The position numbers were made by a program, and so were the translations under genes. From the IMG/VR virus record IMGVR_UViG_3300027805_000006: DNA of 64,000 nt. The stretch is one strand, 5' to 3'. The notes under the pieces were generated by a model that was not told the origin of the DNA, searched no databases, and worked only from the letters and a program-made list of their open reading frames with translations. Of this stretch, positions 11,955-64,000 are shown piece after piece. Source of the stretch: a virus. Its lineage: Duplodnaviria; Caudoviricetes. Within the stretch, counting starts at the first letter, position 1. Every line of letters begins with the position of its first letter.

Positions 11955-12014
11955 GTATGTTTATAAAAAGTTAATAAAGTATATACTGGGTGTAACTTAT
12001 AGTGATTTTTTTAA

Positions 12015-12227
12015 TCACTCCACCTCGTCAGTACGCTCGCTACGGACAATATCGAGATTCATACGGAATAGATTGATGATGAGATATACAAGAACACTGG
12101 TTGCAGAACCGACCATTAGGATGTTTGTTGGAATAAAAAAGACTGCTGCGCTGACGGCTAGAGCGGCCAGCACTGCAATAAGTAGAGGAGCAGCAGTGCG
12201 AATAGCGGCTTCCTTGATATCAGACAT
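12015..12227 (-). CDS. small membrane protein
   Basis: Two hydrophobic segments. Confidence 0.6.
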   Translation of the reverse strand: MSDIKEAAIRTAAPLLIAVLAALAVSAAVFFIPTNILMVGSATSVLVYLIINLFRMNLDIVRSERTDEVE

Positions 12228-12418
12228 TTTCAGTTCCTTTCAGAAGTTTGCTTTGATAAGATGCATTATAACATAAAAAGGTGTGCTGGATACATTAATT
12301 TGTAACTAAATGTAATTTACTGATGAGTTAAAACTCTTTAGGAGACCAGACCTTTGTACAAGTGTTTAGAAATCATTCAATATCGCAAAACGAATAACTT
12401 AATCTAATGATATAGACT

Positions 12419-12562
12419 TCAACCCGGTCCCGTAAAGATAGCAGCAGCCCCGTATTGACCTTCTAGTATCATACGGGCTTGAACAACATTCTCGGCTTGA
12501 ACGGTAACTTTAAAAGTACCTCCCGTGCGGGGGTCTCTAATCCACGCGGTATATGTGTTCAT
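12419..12562 (-). CDS. 47-aa hypothetical protein (below track cutoff)
   Basis: Own translation MNTYTAWIRDPRTGG...; GGAG RBS. Confidence 0.55.
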   Translation of the reverse strand: MNTYTAWIRDPRTGGTFKVTVQAENVVQARMILEGQYGAAAIFTGPG

Positions 12563-12721
12563 TTCAACTCCTATTCAGCACAGCCTGTAGAGCATACACG
12601 GCGTCATGTGTAGTAAAGAGTATAACATCATTTTCAATTACTGTATAGAGATTAGGTTGAATCTCATTGAGTTCATTCACGGTTTTTTCAACTTTGAGAA
12701 CTACGGTTTCGGTTTGTGTTT

Positions 12722-12958
12722 TCATTCTTCAACTCCGAAATGTTCTCTTATAATCTCTGCACCAGAAATACCGTAGTCATTAACACGCAGGTTTTTAACT
12801 TGTTCAGCACATTTCCTGATCAACAACTCGGCGAACTTTTGGTTATACAGTTGAAACCACGCTTGGTTAAATGTATGGCGATCGGCTATACCCTCCGAAG
12901 CAATATCGTTGATAGGTTGAAATGCCTCTAGAGCAAGTTCTTTAATTCGTTCGTTCAT
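12722..12958 (-). CDS. MNER/FGVEE family mini-protein
   Basis: MNERIKELA...KFAELLIRKC...EHFGVEE. Confidence 0.75.
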   Translation of the reverse strand: MNERIKELALEAFQPINDIASEGIADRHTFNQAWFQLYNQKFAELLIRKCAEQVKNLRVNDYGISGAEIIREHFGVEE

Positions 12959-13197
12959 TTGCATTCTTCTTCATAAATTCTTGTCAGGTTTTTGAATACG
13001 TCCATAGCAGAATCGTTAGTCAAAACGTGAGCAGCCACCACGGTAATGATATCTTTGTAAATCAATCCGGCGAATCGTTGGGCACTGGCTTCACCTTGCC
13101 AATATACGGTAGGAGGATTGCCATCAAGTGCAGGATCACCATCGTAGTGGCGAGTTCCGTGTGCTTGGCGATATAGTTCTTTCAATCGTTCGTTCAT
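12955..13197 (-). CDS. MNER family mini-protein
   Basis: MNERLKELY...QRFAGLI; N-half shared with 15474..15719. Confidence 0.75.
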   Translation of the reverse strand: MNERLKELYRQAHGTRHYDGDPALDGNPPTVYWQGEASAQRFAGLIYKDIITVVAAHVLTNDSAMDVFKNLTRIYEEECK

Positions 13198-13454
13198 ACT
13201 AAGTTATCCTTTAACCACCCGATAACGGTCCATTGTTTTACAACAAAAGTTCCATCACCGAATACCGGATTAGCAAAATCGTTCAGAATTTCAAATGGAT
13301 TTTCCGGATCATCTAACCTAACACCATGCTGTTTACAGAAACCAATTAATTCATCTCTATCATAAAATATCTTGCTGGGACCATGGACACCAGGCATTTC
13401 AAAGTTGAATGATTTCCTCCATAATCCTATGTCTCTGGGATAAAAGGTAATCAT
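13194..13454 (-). CDS. hypothetical protein
   Basis: ATGA-coupled ORF. Confidence 0.6.
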   Translation of the reverse strand: MITFYPRDIGLWRKSFNFEMPGVHGPSKIFYDRDELIGFCKQHGVRLDDPENPFEILNDFANPVFGDGTFVVKQWTVIGWLKDNLV

Positions 13455-13681
13455 TCTTCAACTCCGAAATGTTCTTTAATCTTTGAACCAATCACCAACC
13501 CAGGACCTGACATTTTCGGTAGGTCATATGTAGAGGCAACATCGACACAATCCTTGATGATCAACTCTGCGAACTTGTCCATAAAGTTAACCTGTGTTTC
13601 CCAAGAATTGTTTTGCCCGCTTGGATAGGCGGCGGAGGCAGTAGCAGCCTTGTCCCAAAGTTCTTTAATTCGTTCGTTCAT
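13451..13681 (-). CDS. MNER/FGVEE family mini-protein
   Basis: MNERIKELW...KFAELIIKDC...EHFGVEE. Confidence 0.75.
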   Translation of the reverse strand: MNERIKELWDKAATASAAYPSGQNNSWETQVNFMDKFAELIIKDCVDVASTYDLPKMSGPGLVIGSKIKEHFGVEE

Positions 13682-13866
13682 TCTACCACCTCGAATGTAA
13701 TTTTGACCCTAGAACCCACTGGCAATTTGTCGCTGAACCAAAAGTAATCTTCGGGCAAATTGTTTTTAGAGTGATCAAACAATGCTTCAAGACGATTCAG
13801 GATTGGCAAGTTCCTTGCCGTTTCCTCATCATCGAACAAGGTCATTTCAAATTCTGCTTTCATCAT
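13678..13866 (-). CDS. hypothetical protein
   Basis: ATGA-coupled ORF. Confidence 0.55.
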   Translation of the reverse strand: MMKAEFEMTLFDDEETARNLPILNRLEALFDHSKNNLPEDYFWFSDKLPVGSRVKITFEVVE

Positions 13867-14018
13867 TCACTCCCTACCGTCTTCCCAAGTTCGATGGTAA
13901 CTTCTTGGCACTTGCCGTAATTGATGAAACTGCGCCGAACTTCATGCGCTTCTTCCAGTGTAGCGCAGGGCAAACGAGCAGTCTCGTCGTCCTGCAGGAT
14001 AACTACGGTGTAAGTCAT
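13863..14018 (-). CDS. 51-aa hypothetical protein (below track cutoff)
   Basis: Own translation MTYTVVILQDDE...; fills the gap with overlap coupling. Confidence 0.5.
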   Translation of the reverse strand: MTYTVVILQDDETARLPCATLEEAHEVRRSFINYGKCQEVTIELGKTVGSE

Positions 14019-14215
14019 CACCGATCTCCAATAATGTCCACTGACTTGACCAGTTGATCTCGGGAATCAACATATTCGCATTCTTCCTTGGAAACTGATC
14101 GAACAGCAATTCCCAAATCCAATTGCTTTTTGATAAATGCCGAGGCATCAGAGTAGTTGCGGAATGCTCGTTGTTGGTAGGGAACCGCACCATAGTTAAC
14201 TGTATATTGCTTCAT
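14018..14215 (-). CDS. hypothetical protein
   Basis: ATGA-coupled to an FGVEE gene. Confidence 0.6.
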   Translation of the reverse strand: MKQYTVNYGAVPYQQRAFRNYSDASAFIKKQLDLGIAVRSVSKEECEYVDSRDQLVKSVDIIGDR

Positions 14216-14457
14216 TCTTCAACTCCGAAAATTCTACGGATCTTGCCGCTGATTGCACTAGCGGTATCATCGCAGCCTTGCTCGTATGGCTCCATCTCCC
14301 CGTATTCAGCAGGACTGGTGCTATGATGTTCGGTCATAGCCAAAATCGCACATTCCTTCGCAATCAACTCGGCGAACTTTAACTTGTCTTCATTAGTCCA
14401 ATGAACTCCAACCTTTTCATTGAGGTTGTAGATCATTTGTTGAATTCGTTCGTTCAC
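14212..14457 (-). CDS. MNER/FGVEE family mini-protein
   Basis: GTG start; KFAELIAKEC...IFGVEE. Confidence 0.75.
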   Translation of the reverse strand: MNERIQQMIYNLNEKVGVHWTNEDKLKFAELIAKECAILAMTEHHSTSPAEYGEMEPYEQGCDDTASAISGKIRRIFGVEE

Positions 14458-14466
14458 AGCAGCTCC

Positions 14467-14727
14467 TTACATCGGGCGGAGGAGCGAGCCAGACACGTTC
14501 CAGTTGCCGTCAAGACCGCAGTTCACCGAGACCATCTTGATCTTGACCTTAGTGACAGTACCCGTAACGTCCTTGCCGAATCGCGAGCAGAAGAACTTGA
14601 CCTTCTGGCCGGCTTGGAACGATTGAGCTGCTTGCACGCTGCGAACCTTCATGATCTTGGCGATCTGAGCGTTCAGGCTGCGGAGTTCGGTAGAGGACAT
14701 TGCGTTGAGGGTTTTCATGTCGATCAT
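14467..14727 (-). CDS. small basic early protein (KOW/SH3-like C-terminus)
   Basis: Directly behind a promoter; AAGGA RBS; FQAGQKVKF...GTVTKV. Confidence 0.65.
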   Translation of the reverse strand: MIDMKTLNAMSSTELRSLNAQIAKIMKVRSVQAAQSFQAGQKVKFFCSRFGKDVTGTVTKVKIKMVSVNCGLDGNWNVSGSLLRPM

Positions 14728-14756
14728 TTTGTTTCCTTGCTTGATTTGATAGAACA

Positions 14757-14786
14757 ATTATATCAAGAAGTCAAATTGTTGTACAC
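14757..14786 (-). promoter_or_regulatory. early promoter GTGTAC-N18-TATAAT
   Basis: Part of a block duplicated at 14983-15066. Confidence 0.7.
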
Positions 14787-14805
14787 CAGTAGTTGACTAA
14801 AACAG

Positions 14806-14976
14806 TCACCTATACGAGCTGCTGTATTCCACAATAAAGCAAGAGGGAAAGATTGTGTAGAACATATCAGCCGCGTCAAAAAGATCCTTAGCAAAGATCG
14901 TGTAGTCGAACTTCACGACAGACTCAGGAACCATAGGATCGACCAACTCGCCGCCAACAAACTTGTACTCATTCAT
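14806..14976 (-). CDS. 56-aa early protein (below track cutoff)
   Basis: Own translation MNEYKFVGGELVD...; AAGGA RBS; own promoter. Confidence 0.6.
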   Translation of the reverse strand: MNEYKFVGGELVDPMVPESVVKFDYTIFAKDLFDAADMFYTIFPSCFIVEYSSSYR

Positions 14977-15007
14977 TTCGTGTTCCTTTGCTTGATTTGT
15001 TAGAACT

Positions 15008-15037
15008 ATTCTATCAAGAAAGTCAATTGTTGTACAC
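15008..15037 (-). promoter_or_regulatory. early promoter GTGTAC-N18-TAGAAT
   Basis: Paralogous to 14757-14786. Confidence 0.65.
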
Positions 15038-15070
15038 CGCGCAGAACAATAGTTGACTAAAACAGTACAC

Positions 15071-15241
15071 TTAGCCTAAGTTGTTGATTCTAAACGCTTT
15101 TTTCAGAATCGACGCATCCTGCAGAGCGGTGGACAAACGGTCCATGGTAGCGTATTCCAAACCATTACCTACATAAACAGCCGGCTTACCCATTTGCTTT
15201 ACAGCAAGACTTTGAATTTCATGCCACGGACAAACTTTCAT
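15071..15241 (-). CDS. 56-aa hypothetical protein (below track cutoff)
   Basis: MKVCPWHEIQ...; ATGA-coupled to an FGVEE gene. Confidence 0.55.
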   Translation of the reverse strand: MKVCPWHEIQSLAVKQMGKPAVYVGNGLEYATMDRLSTALQDASILKKAFRINNLG

Positions 15242-15477
15242 TCTTCAACTCCGAAATGTTCTTTCAAATCTGACACACAATGCATCCTGCCTGTATTGTA
15301 ATCGCTATTACCTACTCTGCTATTACAAACTTGAATACATTCCCTGACAATCAACTCGGCGTACTTTTCCATTTGTTCAGAACTGACCACATAGTCTCCT
15401 TCGTTCCAATCACTGGGTAATCCAAGAGGTTTCCACCAATCAGCCTGTTCAGCAAGTTCTCTAATTCGTTCGTTCAT
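15238..15477 (-). CDS. MNER/FGVEE family mini-protein
   Basis: 3' 130 bp identical to 18036-18165. Confidence 0.8.
   Translation of the reverse strand: MNERIRELAEQADWWKPLGLPSDWNEGDYVVSSEQMEKYAELIVRECIQVCNSRVGNSDYNTGRMHCVSDLKEHFGVEE
15242..15371. repeat. 130-bp exact direct repeat (second copy 18036-18165)
   Basis: Base-by-base comparison. Confidence 0.9.
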
Positions 15478-15719
15478 TCTTCAACTCCGAAATATTTCTT
15501 AATACGAAGGGCACATTCCATCTCTACAGTATCCCGAGGATCTGCTTTTTCCATGACACAAGCATGGACACATTCTTCAATCAACAGCTTGGCGAATCTT
15601 TGGGCACTGACCTCATCTTGCCAATATACGGTAGGAGGATTGCCATCAAGTGCAGGATCACCATCGTAGTGGCGAATGCTGTGGGATTGACGGTATAGTT
15701 CTTGAATTCGTTCGTTCAT
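15474..15719 (-). CDS. MNER/FGVEE family mini-protein
   Basis: True start MNERIQELY at 15719; the track extension overlaps another ORF. Confidence 0.75.
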   Translation of the reverse strand: MNERIQELYRQSHSIRHYDGDPALDGNPPTVYWQDEVSAQRFAKLLIEECVHACVMEKADPRDTVEMECALRIKKYFGVEE

Positions 15720-15895
15720 AAGAGCAACGATCCTTTCTTTTCGAGACTGACTTGATGTTCTTCCATAGTACGATTGACACATAAACCACCGTCGTACAGA
15801 AGTGGTTGCCCAATCCAGCCCAACCATTCACAAGAATTTGGAGTGAATTTGCGACCGGTTGTGTTCCAGGCTTGCTTGAATTCTTCGTTCATCAT
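15716..15895 (-). CDS. 59-aa hypothetical protein (below track cutoff)
   Basis: MMNEEFKQAW...; ATGA overlaps at both ends. Confidence 0.55.
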   Translation of the reverse strand: MMNEEFKQAWNTTGRKFTPNSCEWLGWIGQPLLYDGGLCVNRTMEEHQVSLEKKGSLLL

Positions 15896-16065
15896 TCAAC
15901 TCCGAAATGTTCAAGAATGCTACTTGCCTCTGACCTTCGGGAAACTTGATCGGCACATTCCCTGACAATCAACTCAGCGAACTTCTCAAGTTTAGTAGGA
16001 ACTCCGTTAGGATTATGTACTAACAAGCCAGCTTCATTGGCAAGTTCTCTAATTCGTTCGTTCAT
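15892..16065 (-). CDS. MNER/FGVE family mini-protein, 57 aa (not in track)
   Basis: MNERIRELANEAG...EKFAELIVREC...EHFGVE. Confidence 0.8.
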   Translation of the reverse strand: MNERIRELANEAGLLVHNPNGVPTKLEKFAELIVRECADQVSRRSEASSILEHFGVE

Positions 16066-16430
16066 TCTTTAACCCCATCAGTGAACATTTGTTCTTCTAG
16101 TTGTGCTAAAAGTGTTCTAACTCTTTGCGTGTCTTCATCATATAGAGCGCTGCGCATTTCGATGATTAGTGGTCTAAACTCGCCAAACACTTCCTCAACC
16201 ATCGCTCGCTTAACTGAAAAAATCATTTCATGATATGCATCTGCGACCAACCCCTCTTCTAGCCAGCAGCTTGTCTCTAATTTAACGCCTATTTTATATT
16301 TTTTTGCTAGTCGGAGATGATCTGCTTCTGAAACAGTTCTGGATACATCAAGATAATTTAGTTTCAGATTGCGCGCCGCCTTAACATCACCAGTTAAAGT
16401 CGCGTTAATTACTTTTGCTAATTTACTCAT
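16062..16430 (-). CDS. hypothetical protein
   Basis: ORF ending GVKE, coupled to an MNER gene. Confidence 0.65.
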   Translation of the reverse strand: MSKLAKVINATLTGDVKAARNLKLNYLDVSRTVSEADHLRLAKKYKIGVKLETSCWLEEGLVADAYHEMIFSVKRAMVEEVFGEFRPLIIEMRSALYDEDTQRVRTLLAQLEEQMFTDGVKE

Positions 16431-16572
16431 GAAATTTTCACCTTTTTAGAGTTCTGAATTATACAAATAGACACAGATTTTTTTGCAGTATTAGAATGCT
16501 TACAGCACCAATCTGCATACTTAGTGCCTACTGCACCTACATTGTGGTGCAAACACCCTTTACAGTGTTTAT

Positions 16573-17421
16573 TCATTTAATGACCTCAATATTAGTAAAG
16601 CCGCGACACTTCTTGCCGTGATACTTGTACGAATCAATAGTAGAGCCGTATCGCTTGAAGGCTTCTAGAGGATCTTCTCCGTATGCTATTTCAACAGAGT
16701 GACCCATAGTTCCGCCTTTCCACGATCCTTTATTATAACCTGTTTCTTTTGAGAATTCAAGGTCTAATGTGTACTTGATCAAGGGCTTCCTGATATAGCC
16801 TAGCCACTTGCACCATCCAATGCCATGACGCCACATTCGTTTTGAGATGTAGCATGTTGCAATAATCTCTTCGCCGTCATAGTCATTGAAACGGAACCTG
16901 ATCTTGTTTACGGCTTGTCTGATTTTACGTTGTTCTTCCCAGTCAGTCCTGCCATTCTTGTCGGCAAGGATAGCATATGATGACCACTCGGGTGTGAAGA
17001 ATTCTTCGTGTTGAAATGTCATGTTCTTCCAAGGGATCCAGACAACCTTCGTGTGGTCAGAGTTCTTCTTATCTCTTGAAGACCAAGATCCGGGTTGAAT
17101 ACCGTAATTGATGTGAACAGAGTCTTCTGTAATAGAGATTCCATACTGGCGTTGGGTGTAGTCCCAATAACCACCTGATGGACTCTTTGACCACGATTCC
17201 TTTGACGTGTCTATCCACTTCTTGCGAGGCTTGAACAACTCGGGAATCCGAAACCACCAAGAGTGCCCAAAGATTGCAACGTGGAGATTACAGTAATTTG
17301 TTCTGGAATGACCGCTTTCATAGTACTCATGGGGATTGGATATAGTCAGTGCGAATGACCAAAAGTCATTCTTTGCATACTCTTTCAACTTAAACAACAT
17401 AAAAGTTCCAGTCAATCTCAA
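16573..17421 (-). CDS. Trp/aromatic-rich hypothetical protein
   Basis: 282-aa ORF; start uncertain. Confidence 0.7.
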   Translation of the reverse strand: MRLTGTFMLFKLKEYAKNDFWSFALTISNPHEYYESGHSRTNYCNLHVAIFGHSWWFRIPELFKPRKKWIDTSKESWSKSPSGGYWDYTQRQYGISITEDSVHINYGIQPGSWSSRDKKNSDHTKVVWIPWKNMTFQHEEFFTPEWSSYAILADKNGRTDWEEQRKIRQAVNKIRFRFNDYDGEEIIATCYISKRMWRHGIGWCKWLGYIRKPLIKYTLDLEFSKETGYNKGSWKGGTMGHSVEIAYGEDPLEAFKRYGSTIDSYKYHGKKCRGFTNIEVIK

Positions 17422-17686
17422 TGAAATTATTAGCAGATTCTATAATTTTTAATTGCTGCTCAATCTCAAATATGTCAGACCTTTCTTGCCATGTCCCAAC
17501 CTTATACCCGTGAATGTTTCGAAGTCCTCGCAGTCTTTCAGCTGTACTAATATAGACAATTTCCTGACTATAAACTGTAAGACCTGCGTCAATCATCTTC
17601 TGCGCAAGAGTTGCTCTAAACTGGTTAAACTGTTCATTATTTCCAGCAATCACATAAATCTTTTCTGAGTTAAACATCCTTGTCAT
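17390..17686 (-). CDS. hypothetical protein
   Basis: ORF in gene series. Confidence 0.55.
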   Translation of the reverse strand: MTRMFNSEKIYVIAGNNEQFNQFRATLAQKMIDAGLTVYSQEIVYISTAERLRGLRNIHGYKVGTWQERSDIFEIEQQLKIIESANNFIEIDWNFYVV

Positions 17687-17700
17687 CTCCCGTATCTAAT

Positions 17701-18036
17701 TTAGCAAGTCACTTTTGTGGGGCAATTATGCCGTGGGCAAACATATCCCATAACTTCTCCATTTGTCCCAATGCCGCATACTGAGCAACCTCTAGAATAT
17801 TGTGGGTGAAGAACAATATTCGGCTTGCCCTTGGGAAGCAGCATATTAATTGTGAGCATATATTCTTCTAGTCGCTGCTTAAGAAATTCAATTTCATCTC
17901 GGTACATTCTTCCTGCTTCATTATGACCACATTGATATACTCTTTCTAACAATGGCGCTAGTAAAGCTGCTCCGGGATACCCGCCATCCTCTAATCCCTT
18001 GATAGCTTGATCTACAATATCTTGCTTATGACTCAT
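17701..18036 (-). CDS. protein with C-terminal CxxC...CxxxxC module
   Basis: CSVCGIGTNGEVMGYVCPRHNCPTK; paralogue of 23479..23769. Confidence 0.65.
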   Translation of the reverse strand: MSHKQDIVDQAIKGLEDGGYPGAALLAPLLERVYQCGHNEAGRMYRDEIEFLKQRLEEYMLTINMLLPKGKPNIVLHPQYSRGCSVCGIGTNGEVMGYVCPRHNCPTKVTC

Positions 18037-18244
18037 CTTCAACTCCGAAATGTTCTTTCAAATCTGACACACAATGCATCCTGCCTGTATTGTAATCGCT
18101 ATTACCTACTCTGCTATTACAAACTTGAATACATTCCCTGACAATCAACTCGGCGTACTTTTCCAACACTAACTCCAAAAGGATACCTTCTTGTTCAAAG
18201 GCATGTTTGGCACCTTTAGCCAGTTCTTGTATTCGTTCGTTCAT
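18026..18244 (-). CDS. MNER/FGVE family mini-protein (chimera of two other members)
   Basis: 5' half identical to 18832..19071; 3' half identical to 15238..15477. Confidence 0.8.
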   Translation of the reverse strand: MNERIQELAKGAKHAFEQEGILLELVLEKYAELIVRECIQVCNSRVGNSDYNTGRMHCVSDLKEHFGVEDES

Positions 18245-18247
18245 TTT
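18141..18247. repeat. 107-bp exact direct repeat (second copy 18968-19074)
   Basis: Base-by-base comparison. Confidence 0.9.
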
Positions 18248-18423
18248 TCAACTCCAAAATGTTCTTTAATCATGTCACCAGTGCCAGCACAATTACCTGT
18301 TGCAATAATACATTCCCGCACGATCAATTCGGCAAACTCATCAGCAACATCTTGCCAGTTCATTGGTGTTTTTGTGTGCTTAACAACACACTGGGCCCAA
18401 AGTTCTCGGATAGGATCGTTCAT
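18241..18423 (-). CDS. MNER/FGVE family mini-protein
   Basis: MNDPIRELW...EFAELIVREC...EHFGVEK. Confidence 0.75.
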   Translation of the reverse strand: MNDPIRELWAQCVVKHTKTPMNWQDVADEFAELIVRECIIATGNCAGTGDMIKEHFGVEK

Positions 18424-18656
18424 TCTTCAACTCCGAAATGTCGTTTGATCTTATTTCCGACATATACCAATGCCTCGTTGAAGCCTTCATAATATTCGCT
18501 TTTGGTGTTGGTATATTGACTATTAACAGACAACTCAGCACATTCTTTCACAATTAGTTCGGCGAACTTTTCTAAATCTTGCTCAATACCAAATCGTACC
18601 ATTGATACCGCATCAAAACCAGCCTGTAGAGCAAGGTCTTTAATTCGTTCGTTCAT
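18420..18656 (-). CDS. MNER/FGVEE family mini-protein
   Basis: MNERIKDLA...KFAELIVKEC...RHFGVEE. Confidence 0.75.
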   Translation of the reverse strand: MNERIKDLALQAGFDAVSMVRFGIEQDLEKFAELIVKECAELSVNSQYTNTKSEYYEGFNEALVYVGNKIKRHFGVEE

Positions 18657-18835
18657 TCTTCATCTCCGAAATAACTATCAAAACATTTTTCGCACGTTCC
18701 GGAGATTGCTACTTCTGCATGTCCCTCTTTTGTGAAGATATTCACACCAAACTTGAACGGCTGCTTACAATCAATACACCTAGCGGTGTCCTTGTCAACC
18801 CATTCTCTACCTACTAGGCGTTGTTCAGTTGTCAT
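18653..18835 (-). CDS. small CxxC...CxxC zinc-ribbon-like protein ending FGDEE
   Basis: CIDC and CEKC; unrelated body but the same 3' junction sequence as the family. Confidence 0.65.
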   Translation of the reverse strand: MTTEQRLVGREWVDKDTARCIDCKQPFKFGVNIFTKEGHAEVAISGTCEKCFDSYFGDEE

Positions 18836-19071
18836 TGTTTAACTCCAAAATGTTTTTTAATCACTGTTGAACCTGTTAGTAATGCTTTGTTATATCCGTT
18901 GTCAAAATCTTCAACTGATTCAAATACAGGGACAGTAATACTTTCTAAAGTCAATGCACATTCTCTAACAATCAACTCGGCGTACTTTTCCAACACTAAC
19001 TCCAAAAGGATACCTTCTTGTTCAAAGGCATGTTTGGCACCTTTAGCCAGTTCTTGTATTCGTTCGTTCAT
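18832..19071 (-). CDS. MNER family mini-protein
   Basis: KYAELIVREC...KHFGVKQ. Confidence 0.8.
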   Translation of the reverse strand: MNERIQELAKGAKHAFEQEGILLELVLEKYAELIVRECALTLESITVPVFESVEDFDNGYNKALLTGSTVIKKHFGVKQ

Positions 19072-19241
19072 TTTCTATTCATCCATCCGATAATGAAAAA
19101 TATTGGCATCGCTGGCAACATAATAGGATAGTCATACCATTTGCTCTTTCGGAATTTATATCCCATAATATTCAGGAAAAACACAACTCCTGCGATAGTC
19201 CACAGAATGTAAATTGCTATACAAATCAGAAATGTCGTCAT
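19068..19241 (-). CDS. 57-aa membrane protein (below track cutoff)
   Basis: MTTFLICIAIYILWTIAGVVFFL...; ATGA overlaps at both ends. Confidence 0.6.
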   Translation of the reverse strand: MTTFLICIAIYILWTIAGVVFFLNIMGYKFRKSKWYDYPIMLPAMPIFFIIGWMNRK

Positions 19242-19468
19242 TCTTCAACTCCGAAATGTTTGCGGATGTTTTCAATGGACTTATCTACAGCCCAGACAAC
19301 ATCGTCGTTTTCACAATTGCTCACACCGATCATGGCAATTTGACTAACACATTCCCGAATCAACAACTCGGCAAACTTCTCTAATTCTAGTCTACTAAAA
19401 GTCCAAGAATCGATTACTGGATAATCTCTCAGTACCTCGAGTGCGATATCATATACGCGTTCATTCAT
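19238..19468 (-). CDS. MNER/FGVEE family mini-protein
   Basis: MNERVYDIA...KFAELLIREC...KHFGVEE. Confidence 0.75.
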   Translation of the reverse strand: MNERVYDIALEVLRDYPVIDSWTFSRLELEKFAELLIRECVSQIAMIGVSNCENDDVVWAVDKSIENIRKHFGVEE

Positions 19469-19483
19469 CTAGATGCTCCTCAA
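19464..19483. repeat. 20-bp exact repeat TTGAGGAGCATCTAGATGAA (minus strand), second copy 19880-19899
   Basis: RBS plus start of two unrelated genes. Confidence 0.8.
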
Positions 19484-19590
19484 TTAAAAACCGTCACCAG
19501 CACCAAAAGAAGTACAGACATAGGCACATAGAGAATGTAGCACATCCAGAATAAACCTTCAATTAATGCATCAAACATATCACGCATCAT
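19480..19590 (-). CDS. 36-aa hydrophobic peptide (below track cutoff)
   Basis: MMRDMFDALIEGLFWMCYILYVPMSVLLLVLVTVFN; AGGAG RBS. Confidence 0.5.
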   Translation of the reverse strand: MMRDMFDALIEGLFWMCYILYVPMSVLLLVLVTVFN

Positions 19591-19617
19591 GCGCTCCTAT
19601 TTTGTTATAACTATTGG

Positions 19618-19884
19618 TCAAGCAAAGTCTTTACGATTGTGACGCTCGCGAGCAGAACTAGCGAAATTGCTGATGTTGCCACACTTGTCTTCCCAACGAA
19701 GCAGACTACGAGCAGTCCAACCAATGTCTATCTTGCTTTCGCAGACAGCCTCTTGGTTCACAACACCATTGAGAAAGATACGCACATGATATCGACCGTT
19801 GATGCAGCGAACAGTAACTTCATGCTCGCACTCGCCTACGATGCAACGCTGGATTTGGATAAGTTGAGTATAGCGGTCTTTCAT
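19618..19884 (-). CDS. hypothetical protein
   Basis: ORF with GAGGAG RBS. Confidence 0.7.
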   Translation of the reverse strand: MKDRYTQLIQIQRCIVGECEHEVTVRCINGRYHVRIFLNGVVNQEAVCESKIDIGWTARSLLRWEDKCGNISNFASSARERHNRKDFA

Positions 19885-19920
19885 CTAGATGCTCCTCAAA
19901 TAGTACGTTCGTGTGCTGGG

Positions 19921-20043
19921 TTATTGAAACAAGTACAGTATTCCATAGAGCACCAGCAAGGGTCCATAGAGTGTAGCACACACAATGCCCAGTAGCAGAA
20001 GAAAGGAAGCAAAGAACTCAACAAACTCGCCAAGTTCGCTCAT
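19921..20043 (-). CDS. 40-aa hydrophobic peptide (below track cutoff)
   Basis: MSELGEFVEFFASFLLLLGIVCATLYGPLLVLYGILYLFQ; GAGGAG RBS. Confidence 0.55.
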   Translation of the reverse strand: MSELGEFVEFFASFLLLLGIVCATLYGPLLVLYGILYLFQ

Positions 20044-20053
20044 GCTATTCTCC

Positions 20054-20131
20054 TCACTTACCCAGGTAGTGAACAATTACGGTGGGACCCACTAGGCATA
20101 GCATTGCTACGATACCAATCAGAATATCCAT
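20054..20131 (-). CDS. 25-aa hydrophobic peptide (below track cutoff)
   Basis: MDILIGIVAMLCLVGPTVIVHYLGK; GAGG RBS. Confidence 0.45.
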   Translation of the reverse strand: MDILIGIVAMLCLVGPTVIVHYLGK

Positions 20132-20132
20132 G

Positions 20133-20330
20133 TTAACCCTCAATTCGTTGTTCAACCAGCTGCGCCATGTACAGAGTGTCCCGGTACCGAGCAACCCACG
20201 ACTCTGAACTCATCGCATTTTCAAAGCTTTTTATCGCTTCTTGCTTAGTGCGATAAGAACCGAGCAGGAAGGGACCCTGCTCGTCTCTGCCACCTACCAC
20301 ATAGCCATGATCCCAGTTCTTCATGTTCAA
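20133..20330 (-). CDS. hypothetical protein
   Basis: Coupled ORF. Confidence 0.6.
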   Translation of the reverse strand: MNMKNWDHGYVVGGRDEQGPFLLGSYRTKQEAIKSFENAMSSESWVARYRDTLYMAQLVEQRIEG

Positions 20331-20650
20331 GCCTCCACAGTCAGCACCGGAGCTGGATCAGTAATACGGCCTTCGTACTCCAGCTGGCTCTTCTCGTACC
20401 AGGTCAGGAAGTCGTCTGCCACAACCTTGTAGGAAACGATGTACTCGCGATACCCCTCGTTGTTGCACTCAATTTGGCCACGCACACGGTCCACGATCAC
20501 CTCGATCATGTCGCACTCGTCCACGTTCTTGACCACGTAGTCGCTGCCGCCCTTGGCCTTCCAGTAGGCATCAGCACCAGTACCCAGCGAACCATCTTCG
20601 CGCCAGGCGTAGTTTTCGAAACATTGAGTAGTGATCAGAAGTTTGGTCAT
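20327..20650 (-). CDS. conserved phage early protein
   Basis: MTKLLITTQCFENY...YWKAKGG; AAGGAGG RBS; behind an early promoter. Confidence 0.75.
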   Translation of the reverse strand: MTKLLITTQCFENYAWREDGSLGTGADAYWKAKGGSDYVVKNVDECDMIEVIVDRVRGQIECNNEGYREYIVSYKVVADDFLTWYEKSQLEYEGRITDPAPVLTVEA

Positions 20651-20693
20651 CGTTTCCTCCTTATCCCTAAGTGTTAATTTAAACAATGAGACT

Positions 20694-20722
20694 ATTATAC
20701 ATCAACCAATAATCTTGTACAC
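20694..20722 (-). promoter_or_regulatory. early promoter GTGTAC-N17-TATAAT
   Basis: Spacer AAGATTATTGGTTGATG nearly matches the 27764 promoter. Confidence 0.8.
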
Positions 20723-20740
20723 TACTATTTTGTAACAAGC

Positions 20741-20771
20741 AAAAACCTGTAACTAAAGTTACAGGTTTTTT
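20741..20771. terminator. 14-bp perfect inverted repeat (terminator and/or operator)
   Basis: AAAAACCTGTAACT-AA-AGTTACAGGTTTTT; overlaps a GTTAC box. Confidence 0.65.
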
Positions 20772-20796
20772 GAAACTATTTTACAGGTTACTAACT

Positions 20797-20982
20797 TTAA
20801 TCGTCAATCCATTCGTGCTTATATTTCTTCCAGCACTGAATAGCCTTTTTTAGATTATCCATCTGTTCTAGACGAATATGATCCATGATTCCCCATTCAT
20901 GATATGTGTTTGTCATCTTCCAAAGACGATCATGTCTCTCTTGTAGAGTTGCAATAACAACATCGTATTTTTCTTCAGTCAT
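20797..20982 (-). CDS. hypothetical protein
   Basis: Coupled ORF. Confidence 0.55.
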   Translation of the reverse strand: MTEEKYDVVIATLQERHDRLWKMTNTYHEWGIMDHIRLEQMDNLKKAIQCWKKYKHEWIDD

Positions 20983-21257
20983 TGTTTACACCTTGCGCGG
21001 ATAGCGGCTGCGCAGACGGAGATCTGCCATGCAGCACTGCGCAGACTGATTGTTTCATCCGTATCTGCGCCGTCACATGCCTGTTCATTTTTCATTGCTT
21101 TGGCATCGCACACCTTCGCACACGCCTCACGCTCGGCAGCGGCAACAAGTTCAGCAAAGCGCGCGAACACGGGGTAGAGATCGCGCTCTACCCACGCGAC
21201 GTGTTCAAACATGGCCCCAGCCTCCTGCGCCATATGCATGATGTCGTCTCTGGTCAT
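20979..21257 (-). CDS. distant MNER-like family member
   Basis: MTRDDIMHMAQEAG...RFAELVAAAEREAC shares the central FAEL..EC core. Confidence 0.65.
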   Translation of the reverse strand: MTRDDIMHMAQEAGAMFEHVAWVERDLYPVFARFAELVAAAEREACAKVCDAKAMKNEQACDGADTDETISLRSAAWQISVCAAAIRARCKQ

Positions 21258-21769
21258 GCTAACTCCTCATTTGGAAATTCTTTAGTTGGTCGAAACATAT
21301 ACTCCGACTTCTCAGGAATAACATATGGAAAAGTTACAGGAACTCTGGACTCATATGATGTGAAATGGGATTTAAACGGCTTACCGTCATTAATACTTGG
21401 AACTGATACCCATTCCCAGAACACTTTGCCATCGATATTGTATGCACCATTGTTATCTTTGAAGACACTGCCGCAACGCTTGTTCTGAAACAGAGGACCT
21501 CCATCAGTGCCATAGGATCTGCTAATATCAACCCACTCCTGGTCTTCACCAGTTAATGGTGTAACTGGCTTGAATCTTGCAAGCGTATCAAACAAATTAA
21601 GCGTATATGGCGCAGTAGTTCCAGAGTGCCCTTCATCACTGAATGTCTCTAGCAACTTTAGAACGTGATTGCAAATTTGTTCTTGCATTTCGTCGGAGAA
21701 CTTGCCGTTCTCATCCATCCAGCCAGCGGCCCTAAACTCATTCTTTGCGTAAAATTCGTAGTTGCTCAT
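21254..21769 (-). CDS. conserved phage hypothetical protein
   Basis: MSNYEFYAKNEF...FSDEGHSG...PLTG...QNKR; AGGG upstream of 21769. Confidence 0.7.
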   Translation of the reverse strand: MSNYEFYAKNEFRAAGWMDENGKFSDEMQEQICNHVLKLLETFSDEGHSGTTAPYTLNLFDTLARFKPVTPLTGEDQEWVDISRSYGTDGGPLFQNKRCGSVFKDNNGAYNIDGKVFWEWVSVPSINDGKPFKSHFTSYESRVPVTFPYVIPEKSEYMFRPTKEFPNEELA

Positions 21770-21838
21770 TCTAATCCCTCGTAAAACATTATGCGCCACA
21801 TTTCTTTTACAATTTTAATCAAAAATCAACCTGCGCAA

Positions 21839-22177
21839 TTAATATTTTAAATGTAACCAACCAATATCCTTTTCCATTGGAGTTATAGTAACTTCTTTCT
21901 TTGAAGACTCAATCAAATTTGATAGAACACCCATTCCATAGACTGAGCATCCATACGCATTTTTGCTACACCCGTATGTTGAGCCTGACGCTCCACGAAA
22001 GTAGAAGCAATTTTCATCTTCAGAGACTGAAACAATTCCACTGTTCATCTTCCAACTATCGCCTCCCGCAAACCCACCGACCCAAGTTGCAAAAACACGG
22101 TAGTGCTGTGGAAGCTCCTCTTTGATCGGTGTAATCTTTAAAACCATCCACCTGTCTGGCATATAATCTTTGCTCAT
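21839..22177 (-). CDS. conserved phage hypothetical protein
   Basis: PDRWMVLKI...GGDSWKMNSGI. Confidence 0.7.
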   Translation of the reverse strand: MSKDYMPDRWMVLKITPIKEELPQHYRVFATWVGGFAGGDSWKMNSGIVSVSEDENCFYFRGASGSTYGCSKNAYGCSVYGMGVLSNLIESSKKEVTITPMEKDIGWLHLKY

Positions 22178-22458
22178 GTACGTGCTCCAAATTGTTTTCT
22201 GATGATAGTGATCTGTTCATCAAGAATAGCATTTTTCTGATATAATGAAGTTTGCCCTGAATATGTTCCACCGCTGTACGGATCATCTTTCTTACTTGTG
22301 TCTAAAACATTTATGCATTCATTCACAATTGATGTTGCAAAATCTTCAAGTGTCAACAGGGATTGGCCATGTCCTGAGAAAGATACAAATTCTCCATGCA
22401 CGTCTTTTCCGAAGTAAAGCCCTGCTTGCTCTGCTAGACTTCTAATTCGCTGATTCAT
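22174..22458 (-). CDS. divergent MNER family member
   Basis: MNQRIRSLAEQAG...DFATSIVNEC...KQFG. Confidence 0.7.
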   Translation of the reverse strand: MNQRIRSLAEQAGLYFGKDVHGEFVSFSGHGQSLLTLEDFATSIVNECINVLDTSKKDDPYSGGTYSGQTSLYQKNAILDEQITIIRKQFGART

Positions 22459-22461
22459 TAT

Positions 22462-22818
22462 TTAATCCTCTAATTTTATAAATCGCTTAGTATTTGTTTT
22501 ACGAGTTCCGCTCATCCACGGTTGAATAGACATGTTGTTCAAATACATCTCCATTGTAGGAATGAAACCAAGATCCTGCTGAATATGATCCTCTGCAATG
22601 TCTCTAGGAGAATATTCTCTACCATCTGAATTTATGCGCGTACGACCAAAAACTTTTTCTACTAAAAAGCACCCAAATGCGGAGTGTAAAATAGCGCGGT
22701 GGCGGACATCAGCAACTGCTTGCTTCGTCGAATCGATAAAGTCGTCAATGTCGGCATAGTCATCTGGCTTTCCACCATACTTCTTAACATGAATCTTACT
22801 GTGTAGAAATGGCTTCAA
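22462..22818 (-). CDS. DUF6915-like protein
   Basis: KPFLHSK...KKYGG...Y..I.DF.D...HRAILHSAFG...AE.HI.QDLG.IPT (recalled family pattern). Confidence 0.65.
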   Translation of the reverse strand: MKPFLHSKIHVKKYGGKPDDYADIDDFIDSTKQAVADVRHRAILHSAFGCFLVEKVFGRTRINSDGREYSPRDIAEDHIQQDLGFIPTMEMYLNNMSIQPWMSGTRKTNTKRFIKLED

Positions 22819-23087
22819 GGAAGCCTCTTGACTATTGATACGACTTCACCGCTGTTGGCTTCATAACTCATGCACCCTCGCTCAAGACACGAATGGTCAA
22901 TCATGAATTTATTTTCAATCGATGTCGCGCTCATTGACGCTCGAAGATGTTCAATTTCTATAGCAGCCTCTTCAAGGAGGTCAGCAATTCGGTCAGGCTT
23001 ACCCTCCTGCACGCTCTTCCTCGATGGGATTTGGCGCCTAATCTCAGCACGCTTTCTTAGCCGATAAACAACATCATTCTCATCCAT
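22815..23087 (-). CDS. hypothetical protein
   Basis: LRKRAEIRRQI..RKSVQEG..DRIADLLEEAA. Confidence 0.65.
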   Translation of the reverse strand: MDENDVVYRLRKRAEIRRQIPSRKSVQEGKPDRIADLLEEAAIEIEHLRASMSATSIENKFMIDHSCLERGCMSYEANSGEVVSIVKRLP

Positions 23088-23088
23088 C

Positions 23089-23325
23089 TTATTCCTTTGA
23101 CTCCATTGCCCAATGCACTACCTTCCAATCATCTAGACAGTCCTCAAAGCAGTAAATTGCATCAACATGGGTCTGACCATACTTTTCACACATCTTGCTA
23201 TACCAGTAGGGCCAGTATTCTTTCCTCACATCTTCTTCAGACATTGTAACATATTCTGGGTCACCTGCATCATTTTTTGGTTGGACGAAGGTAAAGTATC
23301 TCATCACCATTCTCCCTCTGCGCAA
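23089..23325 (-). CDS. hypothetical protein
   Basis: ORF in gene series. Confidence 0.6.
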   Translation of the reverse strand: MRRGRMVMRYFTFVQPKNDAGDPEYVTMSEEDVRKEYWPYWYSKMCEKYGQTHVDAIYCFEDCLDDWKVVHWAMESKE

Positions 23326-23492
23326 GACATCAGGTACCTATAAACCGCCTCTGGATCTTTCTCAAATACTTCTTCTGGCGTGCAGCCAAAAAATTTATTA
23401 TGTCTATTCCACCAATCCACAGCAAGGTCAAGTCCTAGCATACCAACTAGAAGAGCGTGGCACCTCCTATGAAGATTATCAGAGGATAGCAT
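23304..23492 (-). CDS. hypothetical protein (antitoxin Xre/MbcA C-terminal-like)
   Basis: WWNRHNKFFG.TP...V..YL pattern. Confidence 0.45.
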   Translation of the reverse strand: MLSSDNLHRRCHALLVGMLGLDLAVDWWNRHNKFFGCTPEEVFEKDPEAVYRYLMSCAEGEW

Positions 23493-23769
23493 CTTTAACT
23501 ATTATCTTAGTTGGACAATCATCGCGTGGGCACACATAACCAATCACCTCACCATTTGCGCCAATACCACAGACCGAGCACCCCTTATTCGCCCCAGGGA
23601 CGTAAGGAGCACTTCGGTTTTCTCGTCCATTGTTCATTGCCTCAAGGTATCCACAATCATAGACGTTCGATAGCATCTGTGAAAATAAATCTGCAAAGTT
23701 TCTTGGCATACCTGCAGAGACAAGAGTGTCTACAGTATTTTCAATAATTTGTTGCTTATATGTTTTCAA
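23479..23769 (-). CDS. protein with C-terminal CxxC...CxxxxC module
   Basis: CSVCGIGANGEVIGYVCPRDDCPTK; paralogue of 17701..18036. Confidence 0.7.
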   Translation of the reverse strand: MKTYKQQIIENTVDTLVSAGMPRNFADLFSQMLSNVYDCGYLEAMNNGRENRSAPYVPGANKGCSVCGIGANGEVIGYVCPRDDCPTKIIVKDAIL

Positions 23770-23990
23770 GAGACATACTCCTTGACATTCTGCAATTTAA
23801 AATGAGATGCAATTTTATTTGAAACCGAAGTATCATGTGTATCGGTAATTTTTATACATTCCTGAATAATTAGCCGTGCAAACTTGTCGCGGTCAAATCG
23901 GTGATGCGTGCTAGGAAAACCACCGAAGCCAAAGTCACTCGGTTCTTCAACCCAGCATTTTGAGGAAATTTGATAAATTAAATCGCTCAT
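23766..23990 (-). CDS. divergent MNER family member
   Basis: DKFARLIIQEC...SHF. Confidence 0.65.
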   Translation of the reverse strand: MSDLIYQISSKCWVEEPSDFGFGGFPSTHHRFDRDKFARLIIQECIKITDTHDTSVSNKIASHFKLQNVKEYVS

Positions 23991-23993
23991 TTA

Positions 23994-24191
23994 TTACTCA
24001 CTTTTAAAATGGTCTTTTAGACGTTGGGAATACTCACTTGCAGGTACGCGCCGATCAACAAGGTCTTGAACAACTGCAGCACATTCTTTAACAGAAAGTG
24101 CAAACAGCCTATCGAATTTTTCTTCATGAAACCACACGTCATAGTCACCAAATTCAGCCTCATCTAAAATGCTCTTAAGTCTGTGATTCAT
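23994..24191 (-). CDS. divergent MNER family member
   Basis: MNHRLKSIL...VKECAAVV...KDHF. Confidence 0.65.
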   Translation of the reverse strand: MNHRLKSILDEAEFGDYDVWFHEEKFDRLFALSVKECAAVVQDLVDRRVPASEYSQRLKDHFKSE

Positions 24192-24394
24192 CGCTTAACT
24201 CCGAATTTTTCTGCCATATACCAGCCAACGCTAATATCCCGATCGTAATCGGGATATCCCTGCTCCTTCAACTCTGCAATTTTAGCACATTCCTGAACAA
24301 TCAACTCGGCGAACTTTTCTGGATTAAGGTAGGCAGGACCAACACCGTCTTCTTCCCAGCATTGATCAACTAGTTCTTTAATTCGTTCGTTCAT
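24188..24394 (-). CDS. MNER family mini-protein
   Basis: MNERIKELV...KFAELIVQEC...KFGVKR. Confidence 0.75.
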   Translation of the reverse strand: MNERIKELVDQCWEEDGVGPAYLNPEKFAELIVQECAKIAELKEQGYPDYDRDISVGWYMAEKFGVKR

Positions 24395-24609
24395 TCCGAA
24401 ACTCCGAAATGTTGTTCAATATAAGCACCAGCCATTAGTTGACCAGCATATAGTTCATTATTCGTACCGCGATTATAACATTGGTTCAAGCATTCTTTAA
24501 TAATCAACTCAGCAAACTTTTCCGCAAACGAAACAGGATGTCCAAAGTCTGGACTTACCGCAGTTACTTCCCAAGCCTGTTCGGCAAGTTCTTTAACTCT
24601 CTCATTCAT
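24391..24609 (-). CDS. MNER family mini-protein
   Basis: MNERVKELA...KFAELIIKEC...HFGVSE. Confidence 0.75.
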   Translation of the reverse strand: MNERVKELAEQAWEVTAVSPDFGHPVSFAEKFAELIIKECLNQCYNRGTNNELYAGQLMAGAYIEQHFGVSE

Positions 24610-63161: not shown

Positions 63162-64000
63162 ATGTCCACTAAAAATCTATTCGGTTCCATTATAAACTAC
63201 GGTGATACCCTCCCATCTTCGACGACAACTCCAGATGGAGCCATGTTCTTCAAGACTGGAACCGCGCCAGGATTTTACATCTTCTCCTACAGAGATGTTT
63301 CTGCTGATCCCGGAAATCAACTAGCATCGGGCTGGCAACTTCTAATATCTTCTGGTAGTGGTCTTGATGCAAATACGCTTGATGGTTTAGATAGCACTGC
63401 CTTTCAACTAGTTGACCCTACTCTTAATGCATTGGCTGCATTTAATTCAAATGGGCTTTTGGTTCAAACAGCCGCCGATACCTTCACAAGTAGGTCAATT
63501 GCCGCTAGTGGCACAGGTCTGTCAGTATTAAATTCCAATGGAGTTTCTGGAAATCCTGAAGTTGTTTTGAACATCGATACTGCTATGGGTGGATTTACTG
63601 GCCCATTATCAGTGTCTAAAGGTGGTACCGGAAGCACATCTGTTGCAATACAGGGTGGAGTTGTTTATGGTGTAAATGGAACGCAACTTGGTTCTTCTGC
63701 TGCTGGCTCAGCATCGAGTGGTTCTGGAACAAGTCAGGTATGGCAAGTTCTTTCTTCAAATGGATCGTCTGCACCAACGTGGTTAAATGCTACTAGTCTA
63801 AATGTATCATACGCTGCCAATGCCAATTATGCAACTACAGCAGGCAGCGCAACTACAGCAGGCAGCGCAACTACTGCGGGTTCGGCAAATTATGCAACTA
63901 CAGCAGGCAGCGCAACTACTGCAGGCAGCGCAACTACAGCAGGCAGCGCAAATTATGCAACTACAGCAGGCAGCGCAACTACAGCAGACAGCGCAACTAC
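63162..64000 (+). CDS. tail-fibre-like protein, truncated by the window end (not in track)
   Basis: Own translation MSTKNLFGS...GLDANTLDGLDSTAFQ..D.TL.ALA...NG..GNP; open to 64000. Confidence 0.8.
   Translation, partial: MSTKNLFGSIINYGDTLPSSTTTPDGAMFFKTGTAPGFYIFSYRDVSADPGNQLASGWQLLISSGSGLDANTLDGLDSTAFQLVDPTLNALAAFNSNGLLVQTAADTFTSRSIAASGTGLSVLNSNGVSGNPEVVLNIDTAMGGFTGPLSVSKGGTGSTSVAIQGGVVYGVNGTQLGSSAAGSASSGSGTSQVWQVLSSNGSSAPTWLNATSLNVSYAANANYATTAGSATTAGSATTAGSANYATTAGSATTAGSATTAGSANYATTAGSATTADSAT
63825..64000 (+). repeat. hierarchical tandem repeat: 18-bp units within 63-bp units
   Basis: AATTAT+(GCAACTACAGCAGGCAGC)x3+GCA encoding NY(ATTAGS)3A. Confidence 0.9.

Follow-up and report, generated by a model that had tools for sequence, protein, structure and literature searches.

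The window analyzed here is a 64,000-nucleotide stretch of DNA from a giant freshwater phage that has not been cultured. Genes in the window include those for topoisomerase II subunits, a helicase, and a metallophosphoesterase; the protein of the gene at 18420-18656 is on record in a 329,993-bp contig, and parts of the region are contained in freshwater and lake metagenome runs. From 12722 to 24609, the minus strand carries an array of mini-genes in which ~17 paralogs, here referred to as the MNERI family, are found among unrelated small genes, and in which neighbors are mostly connected via 4-nt ATGA overlaps. ORFs cover one strand of the array without gaps. The family proteins have a length of 57-94 amino acids and comprise a head (MNERIxEL), a core ((E/D)KFAELIVxEC), and a tail (HFGVEE), which are separated by two variable segments that cannot be aligned. 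An AlphaFold2 model of a family protein (pLDDT 70) is a plain three-helix bundle, of which the last four residues, GVEE, are coil. At E<=1e-3, we identified 964 metagenomic homologs, while Pfam and PHROGs contained no curated match to the family and a cluster look-up returned no names. Among 50,697 records of cultured phages, neither megablast with positions 12000-20000 nor tblastn with two family members gave a significant match. Two other paralogous ORFs of ~100 amino acids on the minus strand (17701-18042 and 23479-23769), each located directly downstream of a family or family-like gene, share the C-terminal motif CSVCGIG..GEV.GYVCPR..CPTK, which is probably zinc-binding. At the end of the window, a 63-nt tandem repeat with copies that are 91% identical (63822-64000) lies within the open-ended ORF 63162-63998.

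The junction of interest is an 18-mer at 15474..15491, which reads TTCGGAGTTGAAGAATGA on the minus strand from 15491 to 15474 and in which two family genes overlap, both of which possess the head, core, and tail blocks. The upstream gene (15474..15719, minus strand) encodes 81 amino acids counted from its MNERIQELY start and has the C terminus KKYFGVEE; the downstream gene (15238..15477, minus strand) encodes 79 amino acids (MNERIRELAEQA...HFGVEE). For the upstream gene, the 18-mer holds the codons F-G-V-E-E and the TGA stop codon (15474-15476). For the downstream gene, it holds a Shine-Dalgarno (SD)-like GGAG tetramer (15485..15488), which is made up of the Gly codon GGA and the first base of the Val codon, a spacer of 7 nt (15484-15478), and the ATG start codon (15475..15477), which overlaps the TGA to give ATGA. 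A previous sequence-only reading of this DNA had reported that a GGAG precedes, by 7 nt, an ATG overlapping the stop codon, and we confirm this arrangement on the minus strand from 15491 to 15474.

The 18-mer is present in the window in seven exact copies and in ten copies if up to two mismatches are allowed, all on the minus strand, while 100 dinucleotide-preserving shuffles gave 0 matches. Exact copies precede non-family genes at 12722..12739 (next gene starting MKTQTETV), 13451..13468 (MITFYPRD), and 14212..14229 (MKQYTVNY), a small membrane protein gene at 19238..19255 (MTTFLICI), and a family member at 18420..18437 (MNDPIREL); the copy at 15238..15255, which is the tail of the gene at 15238-15477, serves the non-family gene at 15071-15241 (MKVCPWHE). 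The copies with one or two mismatches start at 15889, 18241, and 18653. In that at 15889..15906 (HFGVE-TGA-ATG), the stop codon is located one codon earlier, and GGAG-N7-ATG is retained. Looser variants were found at 18832, 22174, 24188, 24391, and 18026-18047; the last of these (HFGVEDES) is shifted, with its ATG at 18036-18034, 6 nt past the GGAG. All positions at which variants of the junction had been claimed could thus be located, and we found two that had not been listed, i.e., the tail-like ends of two non-family genes at 13678 (FEVVE) and 16062 (DGVKE), each of which lies upstream of a family gene.

To determine how general the junction is, relatives were retrieved independently of the tail nucleotides using a fully degenerate back-translation of KFAELIVREC together with a protein-pattern search. 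Among the 157 unique members of this core-ascertained set, 140 have an FG tail. A start codon overlaps the stop codon in 117 of the 139 FG-tail members not located at a contig end (104 with ATGA and 13 with a one-base overlap), and the downstream gene is a non-family gene at 76 of these 117 junctions. In a second set of 390 unique tail-bearing junctions, which was ascertained in part via the exact tail pattern, GGAG-N7-ATG is present in 305. These data support the proposal that the tail supplies an SD element to whichever gene comes next, and this conserved geometry is directly observed. The 7-nt distance is unchanged whether the stop codon is located at -4 (ATGA) or at -1 (TAATG), in which case the upstream protein is one codon shorter and ends with HFGVE or FGVK. 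More generally, the terminal one or two residues vary or are missing (HFGVE, FGVK, FGVKE, and FGVES), and the distance from GGAG to ATG is constant. In tails of the type F-E-V-x-E with an ATG that overlaps the stop codon, Glu is encoded by GAG in 17 of 23 cases compared to a family background of ~19%. This GAG is mostly followed by GTG or GAT, and GAGG(TG) is thus placed at the identical positions -11 to -8. The GAG preference in these tails is explained by selection for an SD element and not by homogenization with the canonical tail.

The long, well-supported genes of the phage have AGGAG, GGAG, GAGG, or AAGGA at -8 to -13, and the phage, judged by these elements, appears to employ SD sites. 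The tail is, on the basis of its sequence, very probably the ribosome-binding site of the following gene. The ATGA overlap is the general type of junction in the array and is also observed for pairs of non-family genes, in which the 3' end of the upstream gene has a purine-rich element of its own at a similar distance. Because the combination of ATGA and an SD element is general in the array, the mechanism would be ordinary, and what sets the junction apart is its stereotyped sequence alone.

The junctions contain no intergenic space and no terminator-like hairpin, and no promoter-like site was detected in the 18-mer and the adjoining head. Promoter-like sequences (TGTACA-N16/17-TATAAT) were found only in gaps near 14757-14785, 15008-15036, and 20694-20721. 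These gaps contain a repeated 58-nt intergenic element (14730-14787, 14981-15038, and also 20694-20721) with TGTACA-N17-TATAAT/TAGAAT, which is likely an early promoter heading operons of coupled genes. In addition, the first genes behind intergenic gaps share a 30-nt repeat with 90% identity between its copies (19457-19486 and 19873-19902), which spans GAGGAGCATCTAG and their ATG; operon-first genes may use it as a common leader and ribosome site. A freshwater metatranscriptome library (run X1, 2017) contains contigs that are 99-100% identical to 13664-14941 and to seven other stretches, and the contig for 13664-14941 comprises 1,278 nt and five genes. The contigs of this RNA library, therefore, cross several genes, but DNA carry-over is possible, and they are no proof of a single transcript or of translation. 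In five contigs of relatives (L016, L028, L044, L059, and L174), the ATGA of an exact tail opens only a mini-ORF of <35 amino acids, and the next longer gene begins 88-90 nt downstream; this mini-ORF may be a conserved micro-gene or a spacer module.

The tail had also been claimed to be present on unrelated genes, with the zinc-ribbon ORF at 18653-18835 as the example. This ORF ends with FGDEE (TTCGGAGATGAAGAATGA; 18653..18670, minus strand), and its junction has the same geometry as that at 15474. The example holds as far as the geometry is concerned but not as a case of capture. The homologs of this ORF mostly end with YFEDEE or YFEDDDE, with E at the position of the G in the window in 20 of 28 homologs, and at the corresponding position, its relatives read GAG-G or GAG-GTG. 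We, therefore, rejected the ORF as the carrier of a captured tail, and FGDEE is a one-base E-to-G variant, creating GGAG, of its own acidic end. The claim itself is supported by other genes. Using a family profile without the tail, 57 of 418 tail-bearing ORFs were unmatched, part of which are divergent family members. Clearly different carriers are peptides of 32-44 amino acids with a transmembrane stretch and proteins of 70-170 amino acids without the family core. Moreover, a small GIY-YIG domain protein (Pfam PF01541) with an NTFGVK end is encoded in at least 12 contigs, and its GGAG-N7-ATG feeds a MNERI gene. Its loci include L018:2485-2943 and loci in L002, L014, L021, L044, L046, L072, L096, L163, and L173, with the ends NTFGVK or NTFGIK; at most of them, TAATG follows the GIY-YIG gene and usually opens a MNERI gene. 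It is possible that this protein is a nuclease that drives recombination in the arrays.

The sequence-only reading had proposed to compare the synonymous sites of the FGVEE codons with those in the rest of the genes. We determined codon shares in the 157 core-ascertained members, using the share of the same codon elsewhere in these genes as the background. In the tail, Gly is encoded by GGA in 133 of 140 members (95%; background, 27%), Val by GTT in 92% (42%), and Phe by TTC in 70% (21%). The core and the head are frozen to an equal extent. In the core, the shares are 91% for Lys AAG (28%), 80% for Phe TTC (21%), 88% for Glu GAG (15%), 87% for Leu TTG, and 99% for Ile ATT; in the head, they are 89% for Asn AAC (31%), 96% for Arg CGA (19%), and 73% for Leu CTT (18%). 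The freezing of core and head frequently runs against the prevailing codon bias. In the core block, of which K/Y-F/Y-AELIVREC at 15337..15366 (minus strand) is an example, the synonymous sites are frozen family-wide, and no start codon follows. The core was also considered as a second ribosome site and rejected upon inspection of the consensus; the GAG is followed by its nearest ATG (in GAATGT) only after 14 nt and in a different frame. The 157 members represent 127 unrelated clusters of the second variable segment (variable-2), and GGA predominates in 113 of 119 clusters. Because GGA is in the majority across unrelated clusters, recent common descent of whole genes is not the cause of the result for the tail. 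The tail sites, therefore, do not vary freely, as had been anticipated, but because core and head are equally frozen, the frozen tail codons cannot be attributed solely to the ribosome site, and the comparison does not isolate this role. More generally, we caution that frozen synonymous sites do not single out a ribosome site in codon-based tests of this kind. A codon-by-codon comparison in one subfamily was restricted to eight unique sequences that are closely related and was too small to distinguish block sites from the others.

We next turned to rearrangements in the window and its relatives. The gene at 18026-18244 is a chimera of the N-terminal half of the gene at 18832-19071 (copy of 117 nt, 98% identical) and the C-terminal half of the gene at 15238-15477 (copy of 130 nt, 100% identical), and the two copies overlap in the core. 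The 130-nt copy stops at 15242/18036, 1 nt short of the junction ATG, and the unrelated gene after the chimera (MSHKQ...) starts 6 nt past the GGAG of the chimera. The N-half repeat, which extends from head to core at 18131..18247 (minus strand) and is 98% identical to 18958-19074, served as the substrate of recombination for the chimera and presumably also for a public 968-bp contig (L194; ENA ERZ27247435 k141_1883623), in which the first and last 141 nt are identical (k=141). In this contig, 18699->18131 is joined via the repeat to 19074->18559, giving an 827-bp circularly assembling unit (18131-18958 in the window), and the 60-amino-acid gene at 18241-18423 is linked through the 117-nt repeat to the full 79-amino-acid gene. 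The contig may stem from a mini-circle, from a tandem duplication, or from a loop in the assembly. The halves of the gene at 18420-18656 match two different adjacent genes of two related contigs (L122 and L123), with matches that overlap in the core, and a 409-bp match to a third contig (L019) spans the stretch between a tail block and a core block. Between two others (L014 and L096), the gene located between two junctions is replaced. The variable-1 and variable-2 segments assort independently; 17 of 18 multi-member variable-2 clusters pair with more than one variable-1 cluster.

For a systematic count of breakpoints, 194 stretches (1.78 Mb) were compared all-against-all, and the ends of matches of >=150 bp with >=90% identity were recorded. 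Within 40 nt of a tail junction, we found 49 of 220 match ends compared to 3 for random positions in the same loci, and within 40 nt of a core, 35 of 220 compared to 5; because the loci were retrieved using tail and core patterns, these enrichments apply to family-rich DNA. Relative to the stop codon, left match ends concentrate between -30 and -10 and right ends between 0 and +10. The mosaic boundaries thus cluster at the junction, as would be expected if it delimits cassettes that can be reordered, but they are just as frequent at the mid-gene core, and what is shuffled is in many cases half a gene and not a cassette.

Two long contigs from lake samples bridge rearranged parts of the window. 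In the first, which was obtained in three runs from different samples and studies, possibly of one campaign, 15591-15894 continues directly, with no extra letters, at 19244-19372. The contig joins the tail of the gene at 19238-19468 to the junction at 15889-15906 inside 12 nt that are common to both, and it omits the 3.35 kb with about 15 genes that lie between the two tails. In the second, 12 letters link the interior of a phrog_7203-like gene (16686) with the tail block at 14230. We only counted these two contigs and left out ~190 block-to-block joints with sides of 20-33 nt and 90% likeness; the short joints were rejected as rearrangements of this phage, as they derive from other family genes in other organisms. 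We note that Logan contigs lose rare variants and cannot reveal transcripts.

The explanation that we favor, and regard as probable, is that the junction is a dual-use block, i.e., an expression signal and a recombination handle within a three-block scaffold. At the protein level, the 18-mer encodes a C-terminal F-G-V-E-E that lies beyond the last helix in the moderate-confidence structural model. On the mRNA, it provides GGAG, a fixed spacer of 7 nt, and an ATG that overlaps TGA. A ribosome that ends translation of the upstream mini-gene could then initiate translation of the next gene, whichever this is, and the genes would be translationally coupled in long early operons. The junction often extends into the MNERI head of the next gene, and across related uncultured phages, head, core, and tail are nearly identical in DNA in hundreds of genes that cannot be aligned otherwise. 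General homologous recombination between the blocks could exchange half-genes, whole genes, and runs of genes, and the recombinants would stay translated, as the expression signal resides in one of the blocks. We infer that GGAG drives initiation in the cell and that recombination rather than selection at the RNA level keeps the three blocks frozen; portability itself may be selected or may merely be a consequence.

An unlikely alternative is that the junction is a by-product of concerted evolution, in which the conserved end of a tandem family of paralogs is kept identical by frequent recombination or gene conversion among copies and coupling is ordinary, with no selection for a portable signal. 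Under this explanation, a core and a head that are as frozen as the tail, with no start codon after them, are expected, as are the non-family pairs that are also joined by ATGA with an SD element in the upstream 3' end. The codon data can be read both ways. Tails without a nearby start codon mostly retain GGA (13 of 16), and yet non-GGA codons are somewhat more common among them than among coupled tails, in which GGA is present in 113 of 117 (Fisher P = 0.037), a weak signal in the expected direction. What argues against the by-product is that the spacing of GGAG is retained when the stop codon moves, that the FE-type tails attain an SD element through different codons, and that unrelated proteins bear the tail.

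We consider it very unlikely that the conservation reflects the protein, with HFGVEE as a functional C-terminal peptide, e.g., a docking or sorting tag of early proteins, and an incidental ribosome site. Among the best 120 of the 964 homologs, 88 terminate in HFGVEE, the tail is present on unrelated small proteins, including membrane peptides, and the bases upstream of GGAG are conserved (His CAT in 45 of 61 and Phe TTY in 56 of 61), which an SD element does not account for. However, the synonymous sites are frozen against the background codon bias; the last residues vary or drop while the distance from GGAG to ATG is constant, and GVEE is unstructured in the model. Finally, that the ORFs are not genes and the repeat is non-coding by chance or through an annotation artifact has nothing but the small size of the ORFs in its favor and can be dismissed as highly improbable given >960 homologs with conserved frames, ten matches to the repeat where none is expected, and the gapless tiling of ORFs on one strand.

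The dual-use block can be extended to the more tentative idea, which we do not regard as likely, that the three blocks jointly act as a dedicated scaffold for recombination, with frozen handles for combinatorial early proteins and for the entry of foreign genes, whose translation the tail would guarantee. The small GIY-YIG nuclease genes at the junction may stimulate recombination between the blocks. If this idea were true, the scaffold would be a translational, homology-driven counterpart of integrons and of the promoter cassettes of T4-type phages discussed below that diversifies proteins for host takeover or anti-defense. For the dual-use block as such, a linker in a coding junction that includes a ribosome-binding site and a start overlap would mean that a recombinant is automatically translated, which would help to explain how giant phages maintain and renew their libraries of tiny early genes. 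In practice, the 18-mer together with the head and core blocks is a sequence handle with which metagenomes can be searched for arrays of this type and for the genes they carry.

Translation of adjacent genes can be coupled at ATGA stop/start overlaps with an SD element within the upstream ORF. The junction analyzed here has such an overlap (ATGA 15474-15477) and an SD-like element 7 nt before the start codon inside the upstream ORF. The geometry is identical to that in re-initiation studies (PMC2268962) and in ccdA, the 3' end of which bears the ccdB ribosome site (PMC9555053), with the SD element in the last upstream codons and a 4-nt overlap. While the mechanism at the junction is, therefore, ordinary, what is unusual, and differs from these precedents, is that one version of 15-18 nt is present at hundreds of junctions in many phages between unrelated flanking genes.

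Integron arrays are likewise rows of promoterless small genes that are expressed from upstream and vary in content among relatives. In contrast to integrons, the mini-gene array has no attC/attI sites or site-specific recombination; the 18-nt coding sequence of the junction contains no attC-like imperfect inverted repeats, no integrase was found among the ORFs of the window that were examined, and exchange apparently occurs by short homology with no discrete excisable cassette. Because integrase and attC are absent, the comparison with integrons is only an analogy. In the gp38 adhesins of T4-type phages, shuffling is mediated by glycine-rich motifs (PMC3157838), and short conserved motifs also flank hypervariable segments and serve as intragenic recombination points. 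Unlike the MNERI genes, which form an array, gp38 is one host-range gene, and its motifs have no part in the translation of a neighbor.

The modular theory of phage evolution, reportedly put forward by Botstein in 1980, is said to have included linker or boundary sequences. Such linkers are likewise short conserved homologies at gene boundaries that permit the exchange of modules by general recombination, and although they were proposed decades ago, they have to our knowledge rarely been documented. Compared to these, the linker described here is explicit, coding, and bound to a gene family. The best-documented linkers, which act on transcription, are the PeSLs of T4-type phages (Arbiol et al. 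2010, PMC2839356; Comeau et al. 2014, PMC4122927), conserved promoter-terminator cassettes that delimit insertions and deletions in hyperplastic regions and give rise to mini-circles. PeSLs and the junction are both short conserved expression signals with many copies in a hyperplastic region that is rich in small, non-essential early genes. Both delimit insertions, deletions, and replacements between relatives, as we observed here, and for both, homologous recombination between neighboring copies has been proposed as the cause. The 827-bp circularly assembling contig has a parallel in the PeSL mini-circles, with the caveat that it may be an assembly loop. While PeSLs are intergenic and transcriptional, with a sigma-70-like promoter and a terminator stem-loop, the junction is coding and translational, with five codons, an SD element, a spacer, and a stop/start overlap in place of promoter and hairpin, and it is one of three blocks, two of which are intragenic, so that half-genes are shuffled as well. 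By this comparison, the junction can be regarded as a translational analogue of the PeSL cassettes, which are its closest precedent.
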